Positions 1,778-61,262 of a DNA stretch of 64,000 nucleotides are shown in pieces. Every line of letters begins with the position of its first letter. Position 1 is the stretch's first letter. Position numbers and translations under genes: made by a program. Under the pieces are notes generated by a model that worked only from the letters and a program-made list of their open reading frames with translations, did not search any database and was not told the DNA's origin. Source of the stretch: an uncultured Methanosarcinales archaeon (lineage in GTDB: Archaea; Nanobdellota; Nanobdellia; Woesearchaeales; GW2011-AR9); contig CAZEAB010000003.1 of assembly GCA_964510085.1 (NCBI GenBank), forward strand, positions 18,276 to 82,275, given 5' to 3'.

Positions 1778-2914
1778 ATGGAACAGAAGCAATTAGATGA
1801 ACTTGACGAATCCTATTTCGGCGAGGAATTTATTGATGATGAAGAGATAAAAATTGAAGATGTCAAGCCAGCTAAAGCTAAAACTGCTAAAAAGAAAGCT
1901 GAGAAGAAAACATCAAAAAAATCAACTAAAAAAGAAGCAACCAACGCTAAACCAATTGAGTTAGATTCTTTAGATAACATTCAACCAGAGATTGACGATT
2001 TACCTCCGGTTGAAGTAACTGAGATTACACATGAGGAACCACTTGTAAAACAAACAAGCGCAGCTCCTCTTGATACGCCTAAATCAGATCCAATCGATCC
2101 ATGGGCAAATGAAGAAGAAGATGAAAATCTTTTCAAAGAAACTTCTACCTGGAAAGCAATTACTGGAATTGCAGTAATCTTGTTAATCCTTTCAGTATTT
2201 ACTGGTGGATTTCACTTTTCGGGACCAACAGGAGCAGCAGTTGCAGATGGAATTTCATTAGATACAGCTGAACAGAAGGCATTAACATATGTAAATGATA
2301 AGTTGTTACAACCTCCTTTCGTTGCAACAGTTGAAAAGTCTGAAGATGTAGGAACAGTATACAAAATAACATTAAATCTTGCAGGGGAACCAATTGAATC
2401 CTATATGACTAAAGATGGTGAGTTTTTCTTTCCACAAGGTTTCGATGTTGATGGAACAACTCCAACAGAAGAAACAGTTGATCTTGAACCGGTAGAACCT
2501 GTTGTTAAAGAAGAACCTACAGAAGAACCAGTAGTAGTAGATGTACCTACAGAAGAACCAGTTGAGGTAACACCTCCAGTTGAGGAAAAACCAGTTGAAG
2601 TACCTGTAGAAGTGCCAGCTGAACCAACAACACAACTTTCAATGAGCTACAAAAAATGGAGTTTCTCTCCTACAAAGTTAACTGTAAAACAAGGAGATAA
2701 AGTGTCTTTAACAGTTTCTGCAGATACTTCCAATCCAAGTTTTGCTCTTCCAGGATTAACACTTGGAATACCTGGATTAGGAGTAGAACAAGCAGTTGAG
2801 GGAACAGGAACTGTAGAATTTACAGCAGACAAAGCGGGTTCATTTGAATTACTATGTGCAAGTTGTAGTGGAACTCAAGCAGCTGTAATGAAAGGAACAT
2901 TAGTTGTGGAATAA
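1778..2914 (+). CDS. Membrane-anchored acidic protein with Pro/Glu/Val-rich linker and C-terminal cupredoxin-like domain
   Basis: ATG at 1778 lies 5 nt after AGGGGTGA (the track starts at GTG 1769). Lys-rich N-terminus, one TM (ITGIAVILLILSVF), EPVxx low-complexity linker. The C-terminus 'VEFTADKAGSFELLCASC..MKGTLVVE' resembles the cupredoxin_1 fold, but the usual His ligands are not evident. Confidence 0.6.
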   Translation: MEQKQLDELDESYFGEEFIDDEEIKIEDVKPAKAKTAKKKAEKKTSKKSTKKEATNAKPIELDSLDNIQPEIDDLPPVEVTEITHEEPLVKQTSAAPLDTPKSDPIDPWANEEEDENLFKETSTWKAITGIAVILLILSVFTGGFHFSGPTGAAVADGISLDTAEQKALTYVNDKLLQPPFVATVEKSEDVGTVYKITLNLAGEPIESYMTKDGEFFFPQGFDVDGTTPTEETVDLEPVEPVVKEEPTEEPVVVDVPTEEPVEVTPPVEEKPVEVPVEVPAEPTTQLSMSYKKWSFSPTKLTVKQGDKVSLTVSADTSNPSFALPGLTLGIPGLGVEQAVEGTGTVEFTADKAGSFELLCASCSGTQAAVMKGTLVVE

Positions 2915-2916
2915 AT

Positions 2917-3004
2917 GCGTGTGTCAAGGGTAGCGCCCTGACTAGTCGAGACGGGTACCCCAAAGGGGTACGATATCCGTCGTGCCCTACCCAAAGACAC
3001 ACAC
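2917..3004. ncRNA. GC-rich structured RNA element, family copy 1 (unclassified)
   Basis: Starts 3 nt after the stop codon. Nested helices: GTGTGTC/GACACAC, GGGTAG/CTACCC, GACGG/CCGTC and a perfect 7-bp GTACCCC-AAA-GGGGTAC hairpin with a 3'-side bulge GATAT. Shares blocks GCCCTGACT, CGAG and GTGC with 8108-8205 and 43660-43778. Transcribed strand not established. Confidence 0.5.
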
Positions 3005-3050
3005 TAAGGAATAGAAACATTTTTATTCTTCTTTTTTTCTTCTTGACATT

Positions 3051-7270: not shown

Positions 7271-8107
7271 ATGGGTGCACGTAAATTTACACAAGAGGAA
7301 CAAGAACGGATTATAAAACCTATTGTAAGGAATCTCATTGAATCACATACAAAAGGAAAAACAACTATAATTGCTTTACAAGGTGGTCAAGGAACTGGAA
7401 AAACAACAATAGCTAATTTTATTAAAAGAGATTTGACGTATTTTAAATATAAAGTACAATCATTTTCAATAGATGATTTCTATACAACGGCAAAAGAAAG
7501 AAAAGCTCTCCAAAAGAAATACAAAAAGAATCCCTTCTATCAAATACCTAGGGGGATGCCGGGAACACATAGAGTAAAAGAATTACATACTGTTCTCAAA
7601 AATGTTAAAGAGGGAAAACCTTTTTCAATACCTCATTTTGACAAATCTAAACATAAGGGGTTTGGCGACGTTCTCAAAAAAGTAAATAATATCAAAAGAA
7701 GACAAGATTTTATTATCCTAGAAGGGTGGTGTGTTGGTATTCCTTCTGTTACATCAAAACAATTACAGAAAATTTGTACAAAAAACCGTATTAACTTGAA
7801 AAGTATTGATCCAAGAGAATATCATAAGACTGTAATTAAACATATTACCCCATATCTTCCGCTTTGGAAACTGATTGATACAACGATAATGATTGTCCCA
7901 GATTCATCTTCTTGCCATAAATTGTGGCGATTATTACAGGAGAAACGTTTGAAAGAAAAAAAGGGAGAAGGTATGACAAAGACACAAGTTTCACATTTTG
8001 TAGATGTCTTTTTACCATTTACGTATCTTTGCTATGAAAAGATAAAATCAGATATTATTATTAAGGTAGACAAATTACATAATTATTATCAGGTGAAGAA
8101 TGTGTAA
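7271..8107 (+). CDS. P-loop D-glycerate 3-kinase-like kinase (GLYK family)
   Basis: P-loop GGQGTGKTT, then SIDDFYTTA, PRGMPGTHRV, HFDKSKHKGFGD and ILEGWCVG. These match in order the plant/yeast/cyanobacterial GLYK pattern. Confidence 0.55.
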   Translation: MGARKFTQEEQERIIKPIVRNLIESHTKGKTTIIALQGGQGTGKTTIANFIKRDLTYFKYKVQSFSIDDFYTTAKERKALQKKYKKNPFYQIPRGMPGTHRVKELHTVLKNVKEGKPFSIPHFDKSKHKGFGDVLKKVNNIKRRQDFIILEGWCVGIPSVTSKQLQKICTKNRINLKSIDPREYHKTVIKHITPYLPLWKLIDTTIMIVPDSSSCHKLWRLLQEKRLKEKKGEGMTKTQVSHFVDVFLPFTYLCYEKIKSDIIIKVDKLHNYYQVKNV

Positions 8108-8205
8108 GTAACATCATTTTGGGAATGGGGGCCCAGGCTTGCCGAGGCGGTTATAATCGCAGATTATAGAAACCCGCCGTGCCCCATAATCCAAATGTAT
8201 GTTAC
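8108..8205. ncRNA. GC-rich structured RNA element, family copy 2 (unclassified)
   Basis: Begins at the nt after the stop codon. Long imperfect closing stem GTAACAT..ATGGGG / CCCCAT..ATGTTAC. Core GCCCAGGCT-TGC-CGAG-GGCGG-T-TATAATC-GCA-GATTATA-GAAAC-CCGCC-GTGC has the same architecture as copy 1. Confidence 0.5.
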
Positions 8206-8233
8206 ACAAAAATATGTTAATAAAGAGGTTAAA

Positions 8234-9172
8234 ATGTTTAAATACGACGTATTATGTGTTGGAAGTGCAACAGTAGATCATTTCTTAACAACAGATGTAG
8301 CACTAAAAAGCATAAATCCTGGAGACAAAATTCTTGTGAAAGCTAAAGAAGTACATTCTGGTGGTGGAGCAACAAATACTGCAGCAACTTTATCTAAATT
8401 GGGTTTAAATGTAAAAATACTTTCTAAATTAGGCAATGACCACGATGCAGAGTTTATTAACAAGGAGATGAAAGAATATAAAGTTCAGAATATTTGTCTT
8501 CACACTAGTAAGAAACCAACAAATTCTTCTGTAATTGTATCCTCGCCTGTTGAAAAAGATAGGATTATTTACGCGCAAAAGGGGGCATCTCGAGACCTTA
8601 ATGCACGTGATTTCAAAAAACCACGATGTAAGTGGATTTACATGGCAAGTTTAGTTGGAAAATCATTTTCTGTGTTGAAAGAATTAACAAAATATAATAC
8701 TAAAATTGCATTTAATCCTTCACTATATTTAGCAAAGAAAGGAAAGCGACATTTAAAACCAATCTTAAAAAAAACAACGGTGTTAATATTAAATAAAGAA
8801 GAAGCACAAGTTCTTTTAGGGAAGAGAACAAATTCGTGGAAAATATTATTGGAAGGTCTACATTTTCTTGGTCCTAAAACAGTTGTTATTACAAACGGAC
8901 ACAGTACGTTTTACGCATTACATGAAGATACAACGTACAAAATAATCCCCCCAAATGTTCCTAGGATTTCAACAGCTGGTGCAGGTGATTGTTTTGCAGC
9001 CTCTGTAGTTGCAGGCATAATAAAAAAAATGCCCTTTGAAGAAGTATTAGCTATGGCTCAAGCAAATGCATCATCTCTTATACAGCAGATTGGAACAAAA
9101 GAAGGGTTATGTACGATGGCACAAGTACGGAAATTAATGAAGAAATATAAGACGAAAGTCACTTCCAATTAA
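8234..9172 (+). CDS. PfkB-family carbohydrate kinase (ribokinase-like)
   Basis: DVLCVGSATVDH N-terminus and C-terminal TAGAGDCFAASVVAG signature. ATG 8234 follows AGAGGT, whereas the track start 8195 lies inside the RNA element. Confidence 0.85.
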   Translation: MFKYDVLCVGSATVDHFLTTDVALKSINPGDKILVKAKEVHSGGGATNTAATLSKLGLNVKILSKLGNDHDAEFINKEMKEYKVQNICLHTSKKPTNSSVIVSSPVEKDRIIYAQKGASRDLNARDFKKPRCKWIYMASLVGKSFSVLKELTKYNTKIAFNPSLYLAKKGKRHLKPILKKTTVLILNKEEAQVLLGKRTNSWKILLEGLHFLGPKTVVITNGHSTFYALHEDTTYKIIPPNVPRISTAGAGDCFAASVVAGIIKKMPFEEVLAMAQANASSLIQQIGTKEGLCTMAQVRKLMKKYKTKVTSN

Positions 9173-11102: not shown

Positions 11103-11407
11103 TTATTACATTAATATTACTACAGGGAATTATTGATTACATTTACGTATTTCTGTATCCCACGGTAAATCCAATCAGAGCAACGCTCATAGGAACAACT
11201 GCCTTTGTATTTCTCTCAATACCACAATTGAAAAAATTCATTGGATGGAATCCTAAATGGGCATTCATACCAATTTTTGCAAACGCATTCATTGGTGCAT
11301 TATCTGTGCAGGCAGGTATAGTTCAATCAAAATCAATGGAATCAGCTGTATTACATGTTGGTATTTTGATAATAACATACTTCATAGTGAGGAAAATCAA
11401 GAAATGA
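11075..11407 (+). CDS. Small polytopic membrane protein
   Basis: Hydrophobic helices throughout; overlaps both neighbours. Confidence 0.5.
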   Translation: MEWKKDTKIIITLILLQGIIDYIYVFLYPTVNPIRATLIGTTAFVFLSIPQLKKFIGWNPKWAFIPIFANAFIGALSVQAGIVQSKSMESAVLHVGILIITYFIVRKIKK

Positions 11408-11844
11408 AAACAATATACATCGCATCAGATCATGGAGGATATGGACTAAAAAAGAAATTAATCCCCTACTTAGAAAAGAAGTACAAAGTAGAAGATCTCG
11501 GCCCATACTCATACAACAAAAACGATGACTATCCAGATTATGCAATCCCTCTTGCAAAAAAAGTAGCAAAAACAAAATCGCAGGGGATTGTTATTTGTCG
11601 TAACGGCCAAGGCATTTGTATTGCGGTAAATAAAATAAAAGGAATTCGCGGTGTCACTGGTTTTTCTGTAAAAGAAGCAAAAACAACTAAGTTAGATGAT
11701 AATGCAAATGTGCTTAGTTTACCTGCAGATTATCTCACTGTGGGAAAAGCAAAAAAAATTACAAAAGTATGGCTTGAAACAAAATTCTCTGGATTAAAGA
11801 GACATAAACGAAGATTAGCAAAGGTTAAGAAGGTAGAGAGATGA
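11404..11844 (+). CDS. rpiB: Ribose-5-phosphate isomerase B
   Basis: 'MKTIYIASDHGGYGLKKKL' and 'GIVICRNGQGICIAVNK' (RpiB/LacAB). ATGA overlap at 11404. The longer track ORF (11257) is an out-of-context extension. Confidence 0.88.
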   Translation: MKTIYIASDHGGYGLKKKLIPYLEKKYKVEDLGPYSYNKNDDYPDYAIPLAKKVAKTKSQGIVICRNGQGICIAVNKIKGIRGVTGFSVKEAKTTKLDDNANVLSLPADYLTVGKAKKITKVWLETKFSGLKRHKRRLAKVKKVER

Positions 11845-42471: not shown

Positions 42472-43650
42472 ATGACTCTTTACACTTTAAAATATGCACC
42501 TAAGAACTCTAACCAGGTATTTGGACAAGATGAAGGAAAAGTAAAACTTAAAGACTTTATAACAAACTACACTCAACAAAAATTCAAAGCAGCGCTAGTT
42601 CATGGCCCCCTTGGAGTTGGTAAAACGTCTTCAGTATATGCAATAGCAAATGAACTCAAATATGACGTTCTTGAAATAAACTCTTCAGATCTACGAAACG
42701 CAGCAAACATTAAATCATTCCTTGATTCAGCATTAGGACAGCAATCCTTATTCTTCACACCAAAATTAATCTTAATAGATGAAGTAGATAACATCTCCGG
42801 TGTAAAAGATAGAGGGTGTGTTCCAGCTGTATTGAAAGCTATCGAAAAATCAAAATTCCCTATAATACTCACAGCAAATGACATCTATGACAAGAAACTT
42901 AAACCATTAAAGAAAGCAGCTTTACCTATAGAATATCCAAAATTAGATTATAAAATAATTGCTCACGGATTAGAATGGGTGGCGCAACAAGAGAACATTA
43001 CGTACGAAATTAAAGCAGTTAATTCCTTAGCAAGACAAGTTGATGGAGATATGCGTGCAGCTCTTCTCGATTTACATACGTGTGGCAACAACTTTACATT
43101 TGACAAAGTAACAACCTTATCAGATAGAAAGAGAACAGAAGCTATAACGTCCGCATTACGAATAATCTTCAAATCATCAACAGCAGAAAATGCCTTACGA
43201 GCGTTAGATGATGTTGATATAGACATGGACCAAATATTCATGTGGATGGATTACAATTTACCAAAGGAATATACAGATGCAAAATCCTTAGCAAAAGCAT
43301 ATGAAGTTCTTTCAAGAGCAGATGTTTTCCGAGGAAGGATTAGGCGAAGACAACATTGGCGATTTCTTGCATACATGTATAATCTCTTAACAGCAGGAAT
43401 TTCTACATCAAAAGAACAACGTAACACAGAATTTGTTCAGTATAAACCAACTATGAGGCTTCTTCGAATTTGGCAAGCTAATATGAAGAATGCCAAAAAG
43501 AAAGAAATCGCAAAAAAACTAGCAGCAAGAACTCACGTTTCTACACGAGTTGCAATGAAGCAGATACCCTATTTGCAGAAATATTGTGATAATTCTATTG
43601 CTGAAGAATTAGAATTAAGTGATGATGAGTTTAATTGGTTAAAGAAGTAG
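42472..43650 (+). CDS. rfcL: Replication factor C large subunit
   Basis: 'KYAPKN', Walker A 'GPLGVGKTS', 'LILIDEVDN', 'DMRAAL' sensor. Confidence 0.88.
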   Translation: MTLYTLKYAPKNSNQVFGQDEGKVKLKDFITNYTQQKFKAALVHGPLGVGKTSSVYAIANELKYDVLEINSSDLRNAANIKSFLDSALGQQSLFFTPKLILIDEVDNISGVKDRGCVPAVLKAIEKSKFPIILTANDIYDKKLKPLKKAALPIEYPKLDYKIIAHGLEWVAQQENITYEIKAVNSLARQVDGDMRAALLDLHTCGNNFTFDKVTTLSDRKRTEAITSALRIIFKSSTAENALRALDDVDIDMDQIFMWMDYNLPKEYTDAKSLAKAYEVLSRADVFRGRIRRRQHWRFLAYMYNLLTAGISTSKEQRNTEFVQYKPTMRLLRIWQANMKNAKKKEIAKKLAARTHVSTRVAMKQIPYLQKYCDNSIAEELELSDDEFNWLKK

Positions 43651-43659
43651 GTTTGTTTC

Positions 43660-43778
43660 TGTAAGCGCTGCCCTGACTCCTCTGAGCAAAGCTCAGGGCG
43701 CAAACGGGAAAGCTATCCCGTTAAGCGAGTCGAGGTGGGTACATGGAACATGTACAAGTCCACCGTGCAGCGCTTACA
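43660..43778. ncRNA. GC-rich structured RNA element, family copy 3 (expanded, unclassified)
   Basis: 12-bp closing stem TGTAAGCGCTGC/GCAGCGCTTACA. Contains GCCCTGACT, two extra hairpins (CTGAGC-AAA-GCTCAG; AACGGGA-N6-TCCCGTT), then CGAG-GGTGG-GTACATG-GAA-CATGTAC-AAGT-CCACC-GTGC. Confidence 0.5.
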
Positions 43779-43830
43779 ATGTATAAACCATACAAAAACC
43801 TTAATAAACAACTTTCCACTCCAACAACAA

Positions 43831-45291
43831 ATGACTATTACAATAGAAGATATGGCTACATTCTGTAAAAAGAAAGGTTTCGTATTCCAAAGTGCTGAAA
43901 TCTATGGAGGTCTTTCGGGATTCTTTGATTACGGACCGTTAGGAGTAGAATTAAAAAATCGAATTAAACAAAGTTGGTATAAATTTATAGTTCAAGATAG
44001 ACAAAATGTTGTAGGGCAAGACGGTTCAATTATTTCAAACCCAAAAGTGTGGAAAGCTTCTGGCCATTTAGACTCATTTGAAGATTTAATCTTAGTAACA
44101 AAAAAATCTAAAACAAAATTACGTGCAGACCATTTCATTGAAGAAAAATTAAACATTTCTGCAGAGGGGATGTCGGCAAAAGATATTAACACACTTATCG
44201 CAGAAAACAACTTAACATACAAAGGTGAAGAATTTGAAGAAGTTAAAGGATTTCACTTAATGTTCTCAACAGAAGTTGGAGCGGAAGGAGGTAACACTTC
44301 TTACTTAAGGCCGGAAACATGCCAAAGTATTTTTCCAAACTTCAGATTAATAATGGAATCTTCTCGACAGAAACTTCCTTTTGGAATTTCGCAGACCGGA
44401 AAGGCGTTCAGAAACGAAATCTCTCCTCGTGATTTCTTATTTAGACTTCGAGAATTTGAACAAATGGAACTTGAATTTTTTATTCATCCAAATAAAGAAT
44501 GTAATGCATTAACAAAGGAACACAAAAAAACCACGTTTCAGTTTTTATCCTCGGAAGAACAAGATAAAAGTAATAAAATCACATCAATTTCAATAGCAGA
44601 TTTACTGAAAGCAAAAAAGCTAACGGAATGGCATGCATATTGGCTTGCAGAGATGTATATTTGGTATACAAAGATTCTTAAATTTAGCAAAGAAAATATT
44701 CGAGTACGAGAACATACCAACAAAGAATTATCTCACTATTCCTCTGCAACATTTGACATTGATTACAAATTTCCATTTGGCTTTAAGGAAATACTTGGAA
44801 TTGCAAATCGTGGAACGTATGACTTAACACAACACCAAGAACACAGTAAATCCAAATTAGAAGTTTTTGACGAAGCATCTCAAGAGAAAGTAATGCCAAC
44901 AGTTATAGAACCATCCCAGGGAGTTGATCGTTTATTTCTTGCAATGTTATTTGAAGCATATAAAGACGATAAAGAAAGGGGGAATATTGTATTACACCTT
45001 CCAAACGAATTTGCACCAACGTATTGTAGCGTATTCCCATTAGTAAAAAATAAGGAAGAAGTACTTTCAAAAGCAAAAAAAGTCTATGAGATGTTACGAA
45101 CAGAATTTACAACCTCCTTTGACGTATCTGGAAGTATAGGAAGACGATATGCTCGTGCAGATGAATTAGGAACACCTTATTGTATAACAATAGACTTTGA
45201 AGAAGATGATTCTGTAACTGTTCGTCACAGAGATTCAACAAAACAAGAACGTGTAAAGGTTAAGGAGCTGGTGTCATATCTCAGAAAATAA
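43831..45291 (+). CDS. glyS: Glycyl-tRNA synthetase (archaeal/eukaryotic alpha2 type)
   Basis: 'GFVFQSAEIYGG', 'FRNEISPR', 'GVDRL', 'RRYARADELGTPYCITID'. ATG 43831 lies 22 nt after TATA ttaataaa; the track start 43735 lies inside the RNA element. Confidence 0.92.
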   Translation: MTITIEDMATFCKKKGFVFQSAEIYGGLSGFFDYGPLGVELKNRIKQSWYKFIVQDRQNVVGQDGSIISNPKVWKASGHLDSFEDLILVTKKSKTKLRADHFIEEKLNISAEGMSAKDINTLIAENNLTYKGEEFEEVKGFHLMFSTEVGAEGGNTSYLRPETCQSIFPNFRLIMESSRQKLPFGISQTGKAFRNEISPRDFLFRLREFEQMELEFFIHPNKECNALTKEHKKTTFQFLSSEEQDKSNKITSISIADLLKAKKLTEWHAYWLAEMYIWYTKILKFSKENIRVREHTNKELSHYSSATFDIDYKFPFGFKEILGIANRGTYDLTQHQEHSKSKLEVFDEASQEKVMPTVIEPSQGVDRLFLAMLFEAYKDDKERGNIVLHLPNEFAPTYCSVFPLVKNKEEVLSKAKKVYEMLRTEFTTSFDVSGSIGRRYARADELGTPYCITIDFEEDDSVTVRHRDSTKQERVKVKELVSYLRK

Positions 45292-61149: not shown

Positions 61150-61262
61150 GGGGAAAAAGAGGTATTGACTCCATGGGGGCTTAGGCCTCCACTCACACTC
61201 ATGCGGACTCCGTCAAGATTCTACCACCCTCACCCCCTCTTCGGAGATCCGCTTCTTTTTTT
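61150..61262 (+). ncRNA. Stand-alone GC-rich small RNA gene, unclassified (possibly pseudoknotted)
   Basis: TATA box, a GC-rich roughly 100-nt body in an AT-rich genome, and a terminal CTTCTTTTTTT. Helices: GGGG/CCCC, GAGG/CCTC, TTGAC/GTCAA, GGGGGC-TTAG-GCCTCC, and GCGGACTCC/GGAGATCCGC, which crosses the first ones. Confidence 0.6.

Follow-up and report, generated by a model that had tools for sequence, protein, structure and literature searches.

Insertion sequences of the IS5 family, IS903 group, generate a 9-bp target duplication and have ends reading GGCTTTGTTGAATAAATC, and the interiors of MITEs normally drift freely. Under the operational definition of a published review (PMC10969869), MITEs are non-coding elements smaller than ~500 bp that carry terminal inverted repeats, are flanked by target duplications, and occur as dispersed, multicopy sequences with presence/absence variation; they are typically AT-rich, and woesearchaeal genomes have been reported among the MITE-richest of the archaea (PMC11602168). 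The Correia elements (CREE) of Neisseria and the ERIC elements of enterobacteria are long stem-loops at gene ends and promoters, which can be co-transcribed and alter the expression or processing of neighboring messages (PMC10969869). The copies of both are similar within a genome, and Correia elements have a TA duplication, promoters, and an IHF site. REP, BIME, and REPIN sequences, together with the Rickettsia palindromic elements (RPEs), are GC-rich or fold-conserved intergenic palindromes of compact genomes whose shape is more evidently conserved than their sequence; REPs lack target duplications, have a conserved tetranucleotide of the GTAG type, and require a RAYT transposase gene, and RPEs insert in frame into genes. 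The RNAs in Rfam 15 include GC-rich small RNAs of AT-rich archaea, which combine a GC-rich island with a strong fold and covariation.

Here we describe a hairpin element found in three copies in a 64,000-nucleotide stretch of DNA from an uncultured archaeon (hereafter, the window), with a focus on copy 3, located between rfcL and glyS. The organism is a marine archaeon of the Woesearchaeota type, the name under which RfcL homologues are recorded by their sources. The three copies and the rfcL and glyS signals are given in window coordinates of the plus strand. Copy 3 is probably an insertion of a small, non-coding, hairpin-shaped, MITE-like element, one of a family whose members are scattered through marine Woesearchaeota (DPANN archaea). 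The family resembles IS903-group MITEs in being small, non-coding, multicopy, and intergenic, with inverted termini, direct repeats of 8–9 bp, and presence/absence variation; one member also carries IS903-like ends. Unlike such MITEs, it is GC-rich, its ends are not conserved (copy 3 shares only GG-TTTGT), its center is a covarying three-way junction, and ~370 kb of archaeal sequence revealed neither a transposase gene nor an autonomous partner. The similarity to Correia and ERIC elements does not extend to the relatedness of copies, since core identity here is only 56–61%, with compensatory changes. REP/REPIN membership was rejected, since 8–9 bp duplications are present and the base of the hairpin shows no common tetranucleotide; unlike the in-frame RPEs, the elements adjoin promoters on their upstream side. 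As in the small archaeal RNAs, a GC-rich island, a strong fold, and covariation are all found, but 0 of 4227 Rfam 15 models match beyond noise, the element is not syntenic in relatives, and neither a conserved position nor an association with a gene class was observed.

The perfect closing stem and the named sequence blocks of copy 3, which an earlier sequence-only reading had listed, were all recovered in place. The 12-bp stem, P1, pairs TGTAAGCGCTGC (43660–43671) with GCAGCGCTTACA (P1', 43767–43778), and the final two bases of its 5' arm, GC, form the closing pairs conserved in the family. Folding adds an outer helix, GGTTTGT/ATAAACC, which widens the hairpin to 43650–43790; the fold and the vacant orthologous sites described below together delimit an inserted element of ~140 nt. 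Inside the closing stem, the block GCCCTGACT (43670–43678) takes in the junction strand J1 (CCU, 43672–43674; conserved in the family as CCU or CCA in alignments A2 and A3) and the 5' arm of helix P1a (GACU, 43675–43678), whose partner AGUC lies at 43728–43731. This 3' arm and the conserved junction dinucleotide GA that follows it occupy 43728–43733, with the CGAG block at 43730–43733. Next comes the P2/P3 arm (43734–43764), composed of P2 (GGUGG/CCACC), P3 (GUACAUG-GAA-CAUGUAC), and a 3' bulge AAGU. The family-invariant junction strand GU (43765–43766), part of the GTGC block (43765–43768), leads back into P1'. The P1a pairing GAC/GUC changes to GGC/GCC in other members. A 49-nt extra module (43679–43727) fills the P1a loop and forms the two additional hairpins noted earlier: CCUCUGAGC-AAA-GCUCAGGG (43679–43698), which includes CTGAGC-AAA-GCTCAG at 43682–43696, and AACGGGA-N6-UCCCGUU (43703–43722), closed by a GCGC/GCG clamp. 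CCCTGA (43671–43676) and TCAGGG (43693–43698) are also present, and the alternative pairing proposed for them is a possibility.

As RNA, copy 3 folds with a minimum free energy of −69.6 kcal/mol, compared with −39.3 ± 3.6 kcal/mol for dinucleotide shuffles (z = −8.4), and none of 200 shuffles equaled it. The complementary strand gave z = −8.0, and folding with DNA parameters gave z = −7.9 with an unchanged architecture. The plus strand contains 16 G-U pairs and the minus strand 8; neither these counts nor the folding energies distinguish between the two strands as the folded one, or between an RNA and a DNA fold. The element is one of the few islands above 56% G+C in a window of 33.8% G+C, and its sequence is identical in contigs of the same strain assembled from other samples; the contig studied here is JGI Ga0104999_1000295. 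Searches with the 4227 Rfam 15 models, run on the whole window at the gathering score and on 43600–43830 at E ≤ 10, returned only noise; identification as a known RNA class, which the sequence-only reading had named as a refutation, was thus not obtained. ARAGORN found no tRNA or tmRNA. Three further structures were compared with copy 3 by eye, and none fits: the hammerhead requires CUGANGA and GAAA; the K-turn or k-junction requires GA on both strands, where the element has GA and GU; and the archaeal bulge-helix-bulge has a 4-bp helix with 3-nt bulges, where the element has 5 bp and 4–5 nt.

A comparison of orthologous loci indicates that copy 3 was inserted. The element (~140–151 nt) is missing from the rfcL–glyS junction in five of five relatives, whose spacers there measure 25–62 nt. 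In the relative whose RfcL is 93% identical (L088), the junction is 30 nt long and reads ...TTGAAGAAAACTTAATAAACAGC..., also given as ...TGGTTGAAGAAAACTTAATAAACAGCTTTCCACTCCAACAACAAATG; the gene table of its 167-kb contig leaves no room for the element between the two genes, and Logan contigs of this relative (runs X9 and X13) align to 43300–43644 and resume at 43796, skipping 151 nt. The spacer is 42 nt in L007 (GlyRS 80% identical), the one useful relative to emerge from a GlyRS-based scan of species genomes, the others being bacterial with ~43% identity. Among relatives with ~70% RfcL identity, it is 25 nt in L218 and 62 nt in L221/L222. These alignments identify the element as additional DNA of this lineage, and they conflict with the proposal of a resident functional RNA gene or rfcL 3'-UTR element; the sequence-only reading had itself named a lack of conservation in relatives as a refutation, and at this locus that is what was observed. 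In another relative, L226, the rfcL–glyS junction (11195–11635) is occupied by a distinct insertion of 441 nt that contains an ORF of 66 aa, and this junction has therefore been struck independently. The glyS product itself (43831–45291) is a glycyl-tRNA synthetase of the bacterial-like type, with genome matches to one DPANN relative at 80% and then to Firmicutes and Verrucomicrobia at 40–44%.

Copy 3 landed in the gap that separates the rfcL terminus from the upstream border of the glyS BRE/TATA promoter, and its first base completes the rfcL stop codon: the G of TAG (43648–43650) is also the first base of the hairpin. The end of rfcL differs in relatives, that of the 93% relative reading ...KKT-TAA. 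The glyS TATA box, TTAATAAA (43801–43808), lies 23–30 nt before the ATG at 43831. A TATA box TTAATAAAC is found in L088, L007, L218, and L226, and because this box and its spacing to the glyS ATG are kept in relatives, the promoter is older than the insertion. Copy 3 lies upstream of this conserved box and thus outside the glyS mRNA, as the sequence-only reading had argued.

The other tested copies were likewise vacant in relatives. At the locus of copy 1 (2914–3007), which has no counterpart in the relative, contigs join 2913 to 3050 through 35 unrelated-looking but alignable letters, and the vacant site shows a single GGAATA, whereas the window has two as direct repeats (2908–2913 and 3008–3013). 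Copy 2 (8099–8232), with flanks AATGTGTAA and AATGTTTAA, is also without a counterpart; there, the alignment jumps 134 nt, and a run of eight letters is compatible with either side of the joint (AATGTGTA / AATGTTTA). L223 and L087 lack the L218 copy in the same spacer between leuS and glutaredoxin (grx). In total, four of four tested copies are missing at orthologous sites. The window and the 93% relative differ at 58 of 345 nt and synonymous sites are near saturation, so the absence there is not enough to give an age for the insertion. Judged by their near-perfect duplications and pristine stems, the insertions should be young, which implies that already-diverged lineages of the element were active and that the fold was selected during propagation.

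A covariance-model search, which the sequence-only reading had suggested as a check, extended the family to other Woesearchaeota. Model R1, built from the three window cores, and a second model, R2, were run against ~370 kb of relatives' loci and recovered four further members (E from 2e-7 to 2e-4) in relatives with ~70% RfcL identity: L218 8828–8899, L219a (L219 3757–3621, also in L227), L219b (L219 9840–9955, also in L220 and L227), and L227c (L227 7033–6849). With the three copies in 73 kb here, the family numbers seven members of 92–185 nt, all non-coding and intergenic. A looser descriptor scan of 80 bacterial control loci yielded nothing member-like. In a pattern scan of IMG/VR, none of the 119 matches was true; three passed the P2 pairing test, the rest of the structure was missing in all, and they represent chance matches in GC-rich phage DNA.

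The shared core was parsed as a three-way junction, GC / CCU-P1a-GA-GGN.. / GU / GC, that is, in the order P1, CCU (or CCA), P1a, GA, P2 on P3, GU, and P1'. P1 is a long, variable stem whose closing pairs are always G-C and C-G; P1a is a mini-hairpin (GAC-UA-GUC in copy 1, GGC-UU-GCC in copy 2); and P2, of 5 bp, stacks on P3 (7–8 bp) with a 4–5 nt bulge on the 3' side. Across the three window copies, 93% of cells were paired and 15 of 24 pairs were compensatory, a level reached by none of 500 shuffles, with slid controls giving at most 3. With five members, 93.6% of cells were paired and 18 of 24 core pairs were compensatory (0/500 shuffles; slid controls at most 6), although the covariance model itself served to align the two added rows, and this favors the model. 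The stems thus vary by compensatory substitution and the junction letters stay fixed. The conserved scaffold of the sequence-only reading was borne out in this respect; in relatives, it recurs only as a dispersed repeat at other sites, and not at the rfcL–glyS locus.

Copy 3 is the expanded form of this scaffold. Without 43679–43727, it reads GCCCTGACTAGTCGAG and is identical to copy 1 at 16 of 16 positions around P1a, which places the 49 nt exactly in the P1a loop and confirms both its family membership and the modular two-hairpin insertion recognized earlier. With the module present, P1a is a real stem of 4–6 bp that closes the two hairpins, and cmsearch treats the module as a 50-nt insertion in the P1a loop. 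P1a is missing in two members (L219b and L227c), a 3-bp mini-hairpin in four, and expanded in copy 3; it is therefore a variable arm that may be absent, minimal, or expanded. BLAST found no second copy of the module in 367 kb of archaeal DNA, and an 18-nt match in L090 was dismissed as chance, as it lies in a coding region. In the interval 43679–43733, the module starts with CCUCUGAGC (compare CCCUGAC of the core) and ends with GCGAG beside UCGAG, and its layout of CCU, hairpin, and arm with a 3' bulge resembles the core. The module may represent a second core nested in the first, or else a partial duplication from inside the element.

Other GC-rich hairpins occur in these genomes. In the window, an island of ~100 nt with 62% G+C at 61150–61262 (plus strand) is preceded at ~25 nt by a TTTATATA box and terminates in a T7 run; it has no Rfam match at E ≤ 1 and folds with z = −1.65 only, and it could be a candidate small RNA gene. 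A different GC-rich hairpin repeat (..CTGCTGGTKGGATTGCACTGCGGGCACCCCGTAAGGGGCTTCCCCCACC..) occurs at L221 7776–7847 and 14897–14974 (= L222 3180–3251 and 10300–10378), a density of two copies per 20 kb; the RfcL of this relative is ~70% identical, and model R2 does not match the repeat.

The family members, here and in relatives, are likewise insertions, most with 8–9 bp duplications and all with inverted termini, and because of these two features they behave as mobile DNA, in conflict with the functional-RNA reading of the scaffold. L219a is flanked by a direct repeat TCCACACCA (9/9) that adjoins its 18-nt inverted ends, GGCTAATATGAAACCCTC; L219b has a direct repeat GTATTACC (8/8) and ends ...GGGACAGAGCC; and L227c has TATTGATTA / CATTGATTG (7/9) with ends GGCTTTGTAGAATTGCT and GGCTCTGTAGAAATGCT. 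The duplication scores in the family are 9/9, 8/8, 8/9, 7/9, and 7/9. For copy 3, the best flanking 9-mers, AAAGAAGTA and ATACAAAAA, match at 5/9 in A-rich sequence, so that no target duplication is recognizable, and the comparison with L088 or L007 does not yield a clean one. The ends of each copy pair with each other (GGTTTGT..TGTAAGCGCTGC with GCAGCGCTTACA..ATAAACC in copy 3, over 18 nt in L219a, and over 17 nt in L227c), but terminal sequences differ among copies (GGTTTGTTTC, GCGTGTGTC, TGTGTAAG, GGTGTGAG, GGCTAATATG, GGCTTTGTAG), even within one genome (GGCTAATATGAA in L219a, CTGTCCCAAAAGG in L219b). A GGCT terminus is common to three copies of one genome, and copies 1, 2, and L218 have GTGTG-type ends.

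We compared these termini with the IS903 end, GGCTTTGTTGAATAAATCG; this 32-mer occurs in at least 5000 plasmids and directly adjoins an annotated IS5-family transposase gene. L227c comes closest to the IS903 group, in which a 9-bp duplication accompanies ends starting GGCTTTGT: its ends agree at 12 positions with the initial 13 bases of the IS903 end, and its duplication scores 7/9. The agreement of L219a and L219b is partial (GGCT ends, with 9-bp and 8-bp duplications), and copy 3 shows GG-TTTGT only, without a duplication. No IS-like inverted-repeat pairs were found in the window beyond the element itself, and no further IS903-like ends in 367 kb of archaeal loci. Relative to the general features of MITEs, copy 3 is non-coding and, at ~140 nt, well within the size limit; terminal inverted repeats are present, with sequences that vary between copies; the family is dispersed and multicopy with presence/absence variation; and target duplications are seen in the family, with the 5/9 A-rich match at copy 3.

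The elements adjoin the upstream edge of the BRE/TATA of leaderless or near-leaderless genes. With the flanking direct repeat taken as the 3' boundary, the start codon that follows the element lies 45 nt away in three members (L219a, L219b, and L227c), whereas the spacing is 43 nt for copy 1, 41 nt for copy 3, and 30 nt for L218; six of the seven members end 41–45 nt before the next start codon when the extra 3' segment of copy 2 is left out. This position at the promoter edge may simply be the only tolerated site in compact genomes. The neighbors of the seven members are functionally unrelated genes, and three members lie between divergent promoters. Orientation is informative only between tandem genes, as co-orientation with the downstream gene is automatic in divergent spacers; all four copies in tandem contexts (copies 1, 2, 3, and L227c) are co-oriented with the genes (p = 0.06).

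Copy 2 was inserted in a former stop/start overlap, ATGTTTAA, of the ORF at 7271–8107 and a PfkB kinase gene (ATG 8235), both of which were preserved through the target duplication. In the interval 8091–8245, the old Shine-Dalgarno sequence and ATG now head a mini-ORF of three codons (ATG TGT AAG TAA), and a new GAGGT, within the inserted segment, lies upstream of the kinase start at 8235. The element accounts for three mis-called starts: the kinase ATG at 8195, the glyS GTG at 43735, and the IMPDH start at 3665 of the relative L219 all lie inside elements, and the true in-frame starts are at 8235, 43831, and 3575, respectively. The GTG-initiated extension of glyS is the only ORF that touches copy 3, and it is spurious, as the sequence-only reading had stated, because it begins inside DNA that relatives lack.

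The idea that the element is a functional structured RNA family, either small RNA genes or cis-acting 3'-UTR/intergenic elements, with copy 3 as an expanded member acting on rfcL/glyS expression, accommodates the strong covariation, the invariant junction nucleotides, the co-orientation of the four copies in tandem-gene contexts, and the lack of a match to known RNA classes. We nevertheless consider it improbable: none of five relatives conserves the element at the orthologous locus, copies carry target-site duplications, three members lie between divergent promoters where read-through is not expected, the copies have neither a common upstream TATA box nor an oligo-T terminator after them, the flanking genes are functionally unrelated, and the orientation bias reaches only p = 0.06. 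That the element was ancestral at the rfcL–glyS junction and was precisely deleted in the relatives is very improbable indeed. The direct repeats around copies 1 and 2 could allow deletion by slippage, but five relatives at three divergence depths all lack copy 3 and retain a short, alignable spacer with the same promoter, and independent precise losses would be needed at all four loci tested.

A closer competitor, although still rather unlikely, is a mobile element defined by its fold, for which a structure-specific enzyme would recognize the hairpin and three-way junction, in single-stranded DNA or as a cruciform, rather than the sequence of terminal repeats; the resemblance of some ends to IS903 would be incidental or stem from a carrier. 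Two observations that count against the MITE-like reading speak for it. The ends are not conserved between copies, as would not be expected if a single transposase read them, and they differ wholly between L219a and L219b, two copies of one genome with good duplications; and the interior junction, with invariant letters and helices that all covary, is the conserved part, the reverse of what is predicted for a MITE read by its transposase. The equally good DNA-parameter fold and the absence of a clear distinction between strands (16 versus 8 G-U pairs, plus versus minus) also suit it. However, duplications of 8–9 bp are a hallmark of ordinary DDE transposition, the GGCT terminus recurs in three copies from a single genome, no enzyme that might recognize the structure was found, and the sample is small, at seven members.

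Under the preferred reading of a MITE-like insertion, the copies would have been moved in trans by a DDE transposase making staggered cuts of 8–9 bp, and an enzyme of the IS5 family, IS903 group, is the most likely mover because some members end in GGCT(T/C)TGTAGAA. The ends and the 9-bp duplications point to this group, and an assignment to IS6 is not supported. Selection would act on one strand in its folded form, as single-stranded DNA during transposition or as RNA, and would thereby preserve the three-way junction; P1a would be a tolerant arm, which in copy 3 carries the 49-nt two-hairpin module. Any transcription of copy 3 at this locus would be as a 3' tail of the rfcL message; the organism itself was found only in DNA runs, and four metatranscriptomes of the same studies contained nothing from it. 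One further interpretation is tentative and, on balance, doubtful: the conserved junction could be a functional nucleic-acid module that is needed for propagation and read as a one-strand fold, so that the family would represent a fold-defined class of small DPANN mobile elements, with helices and even termini free to vary by compensation, that target the stretch bordering archaeal core promoters on the upstream side, and the arm of copy 3 would show a capacity for structured cargo.

Overall, what is new here is a MITE-like element with a covarying three-way-junction core, of which copy 3 is an expanded form. Its history documents transposition into the few spare bases of a compact archaeal genome, between a stop codon and the next promoter, and cautions that GC-rich, covarying hairpins of AT-rich DPANN genomes should not be filed as RNA genes. 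The maintenance of the internal three-way junction by compensation while the ends vary raises a testable question; if mobility does require the fold, this would be a kind of recognition that has not been described for MITEs of the DDE type.
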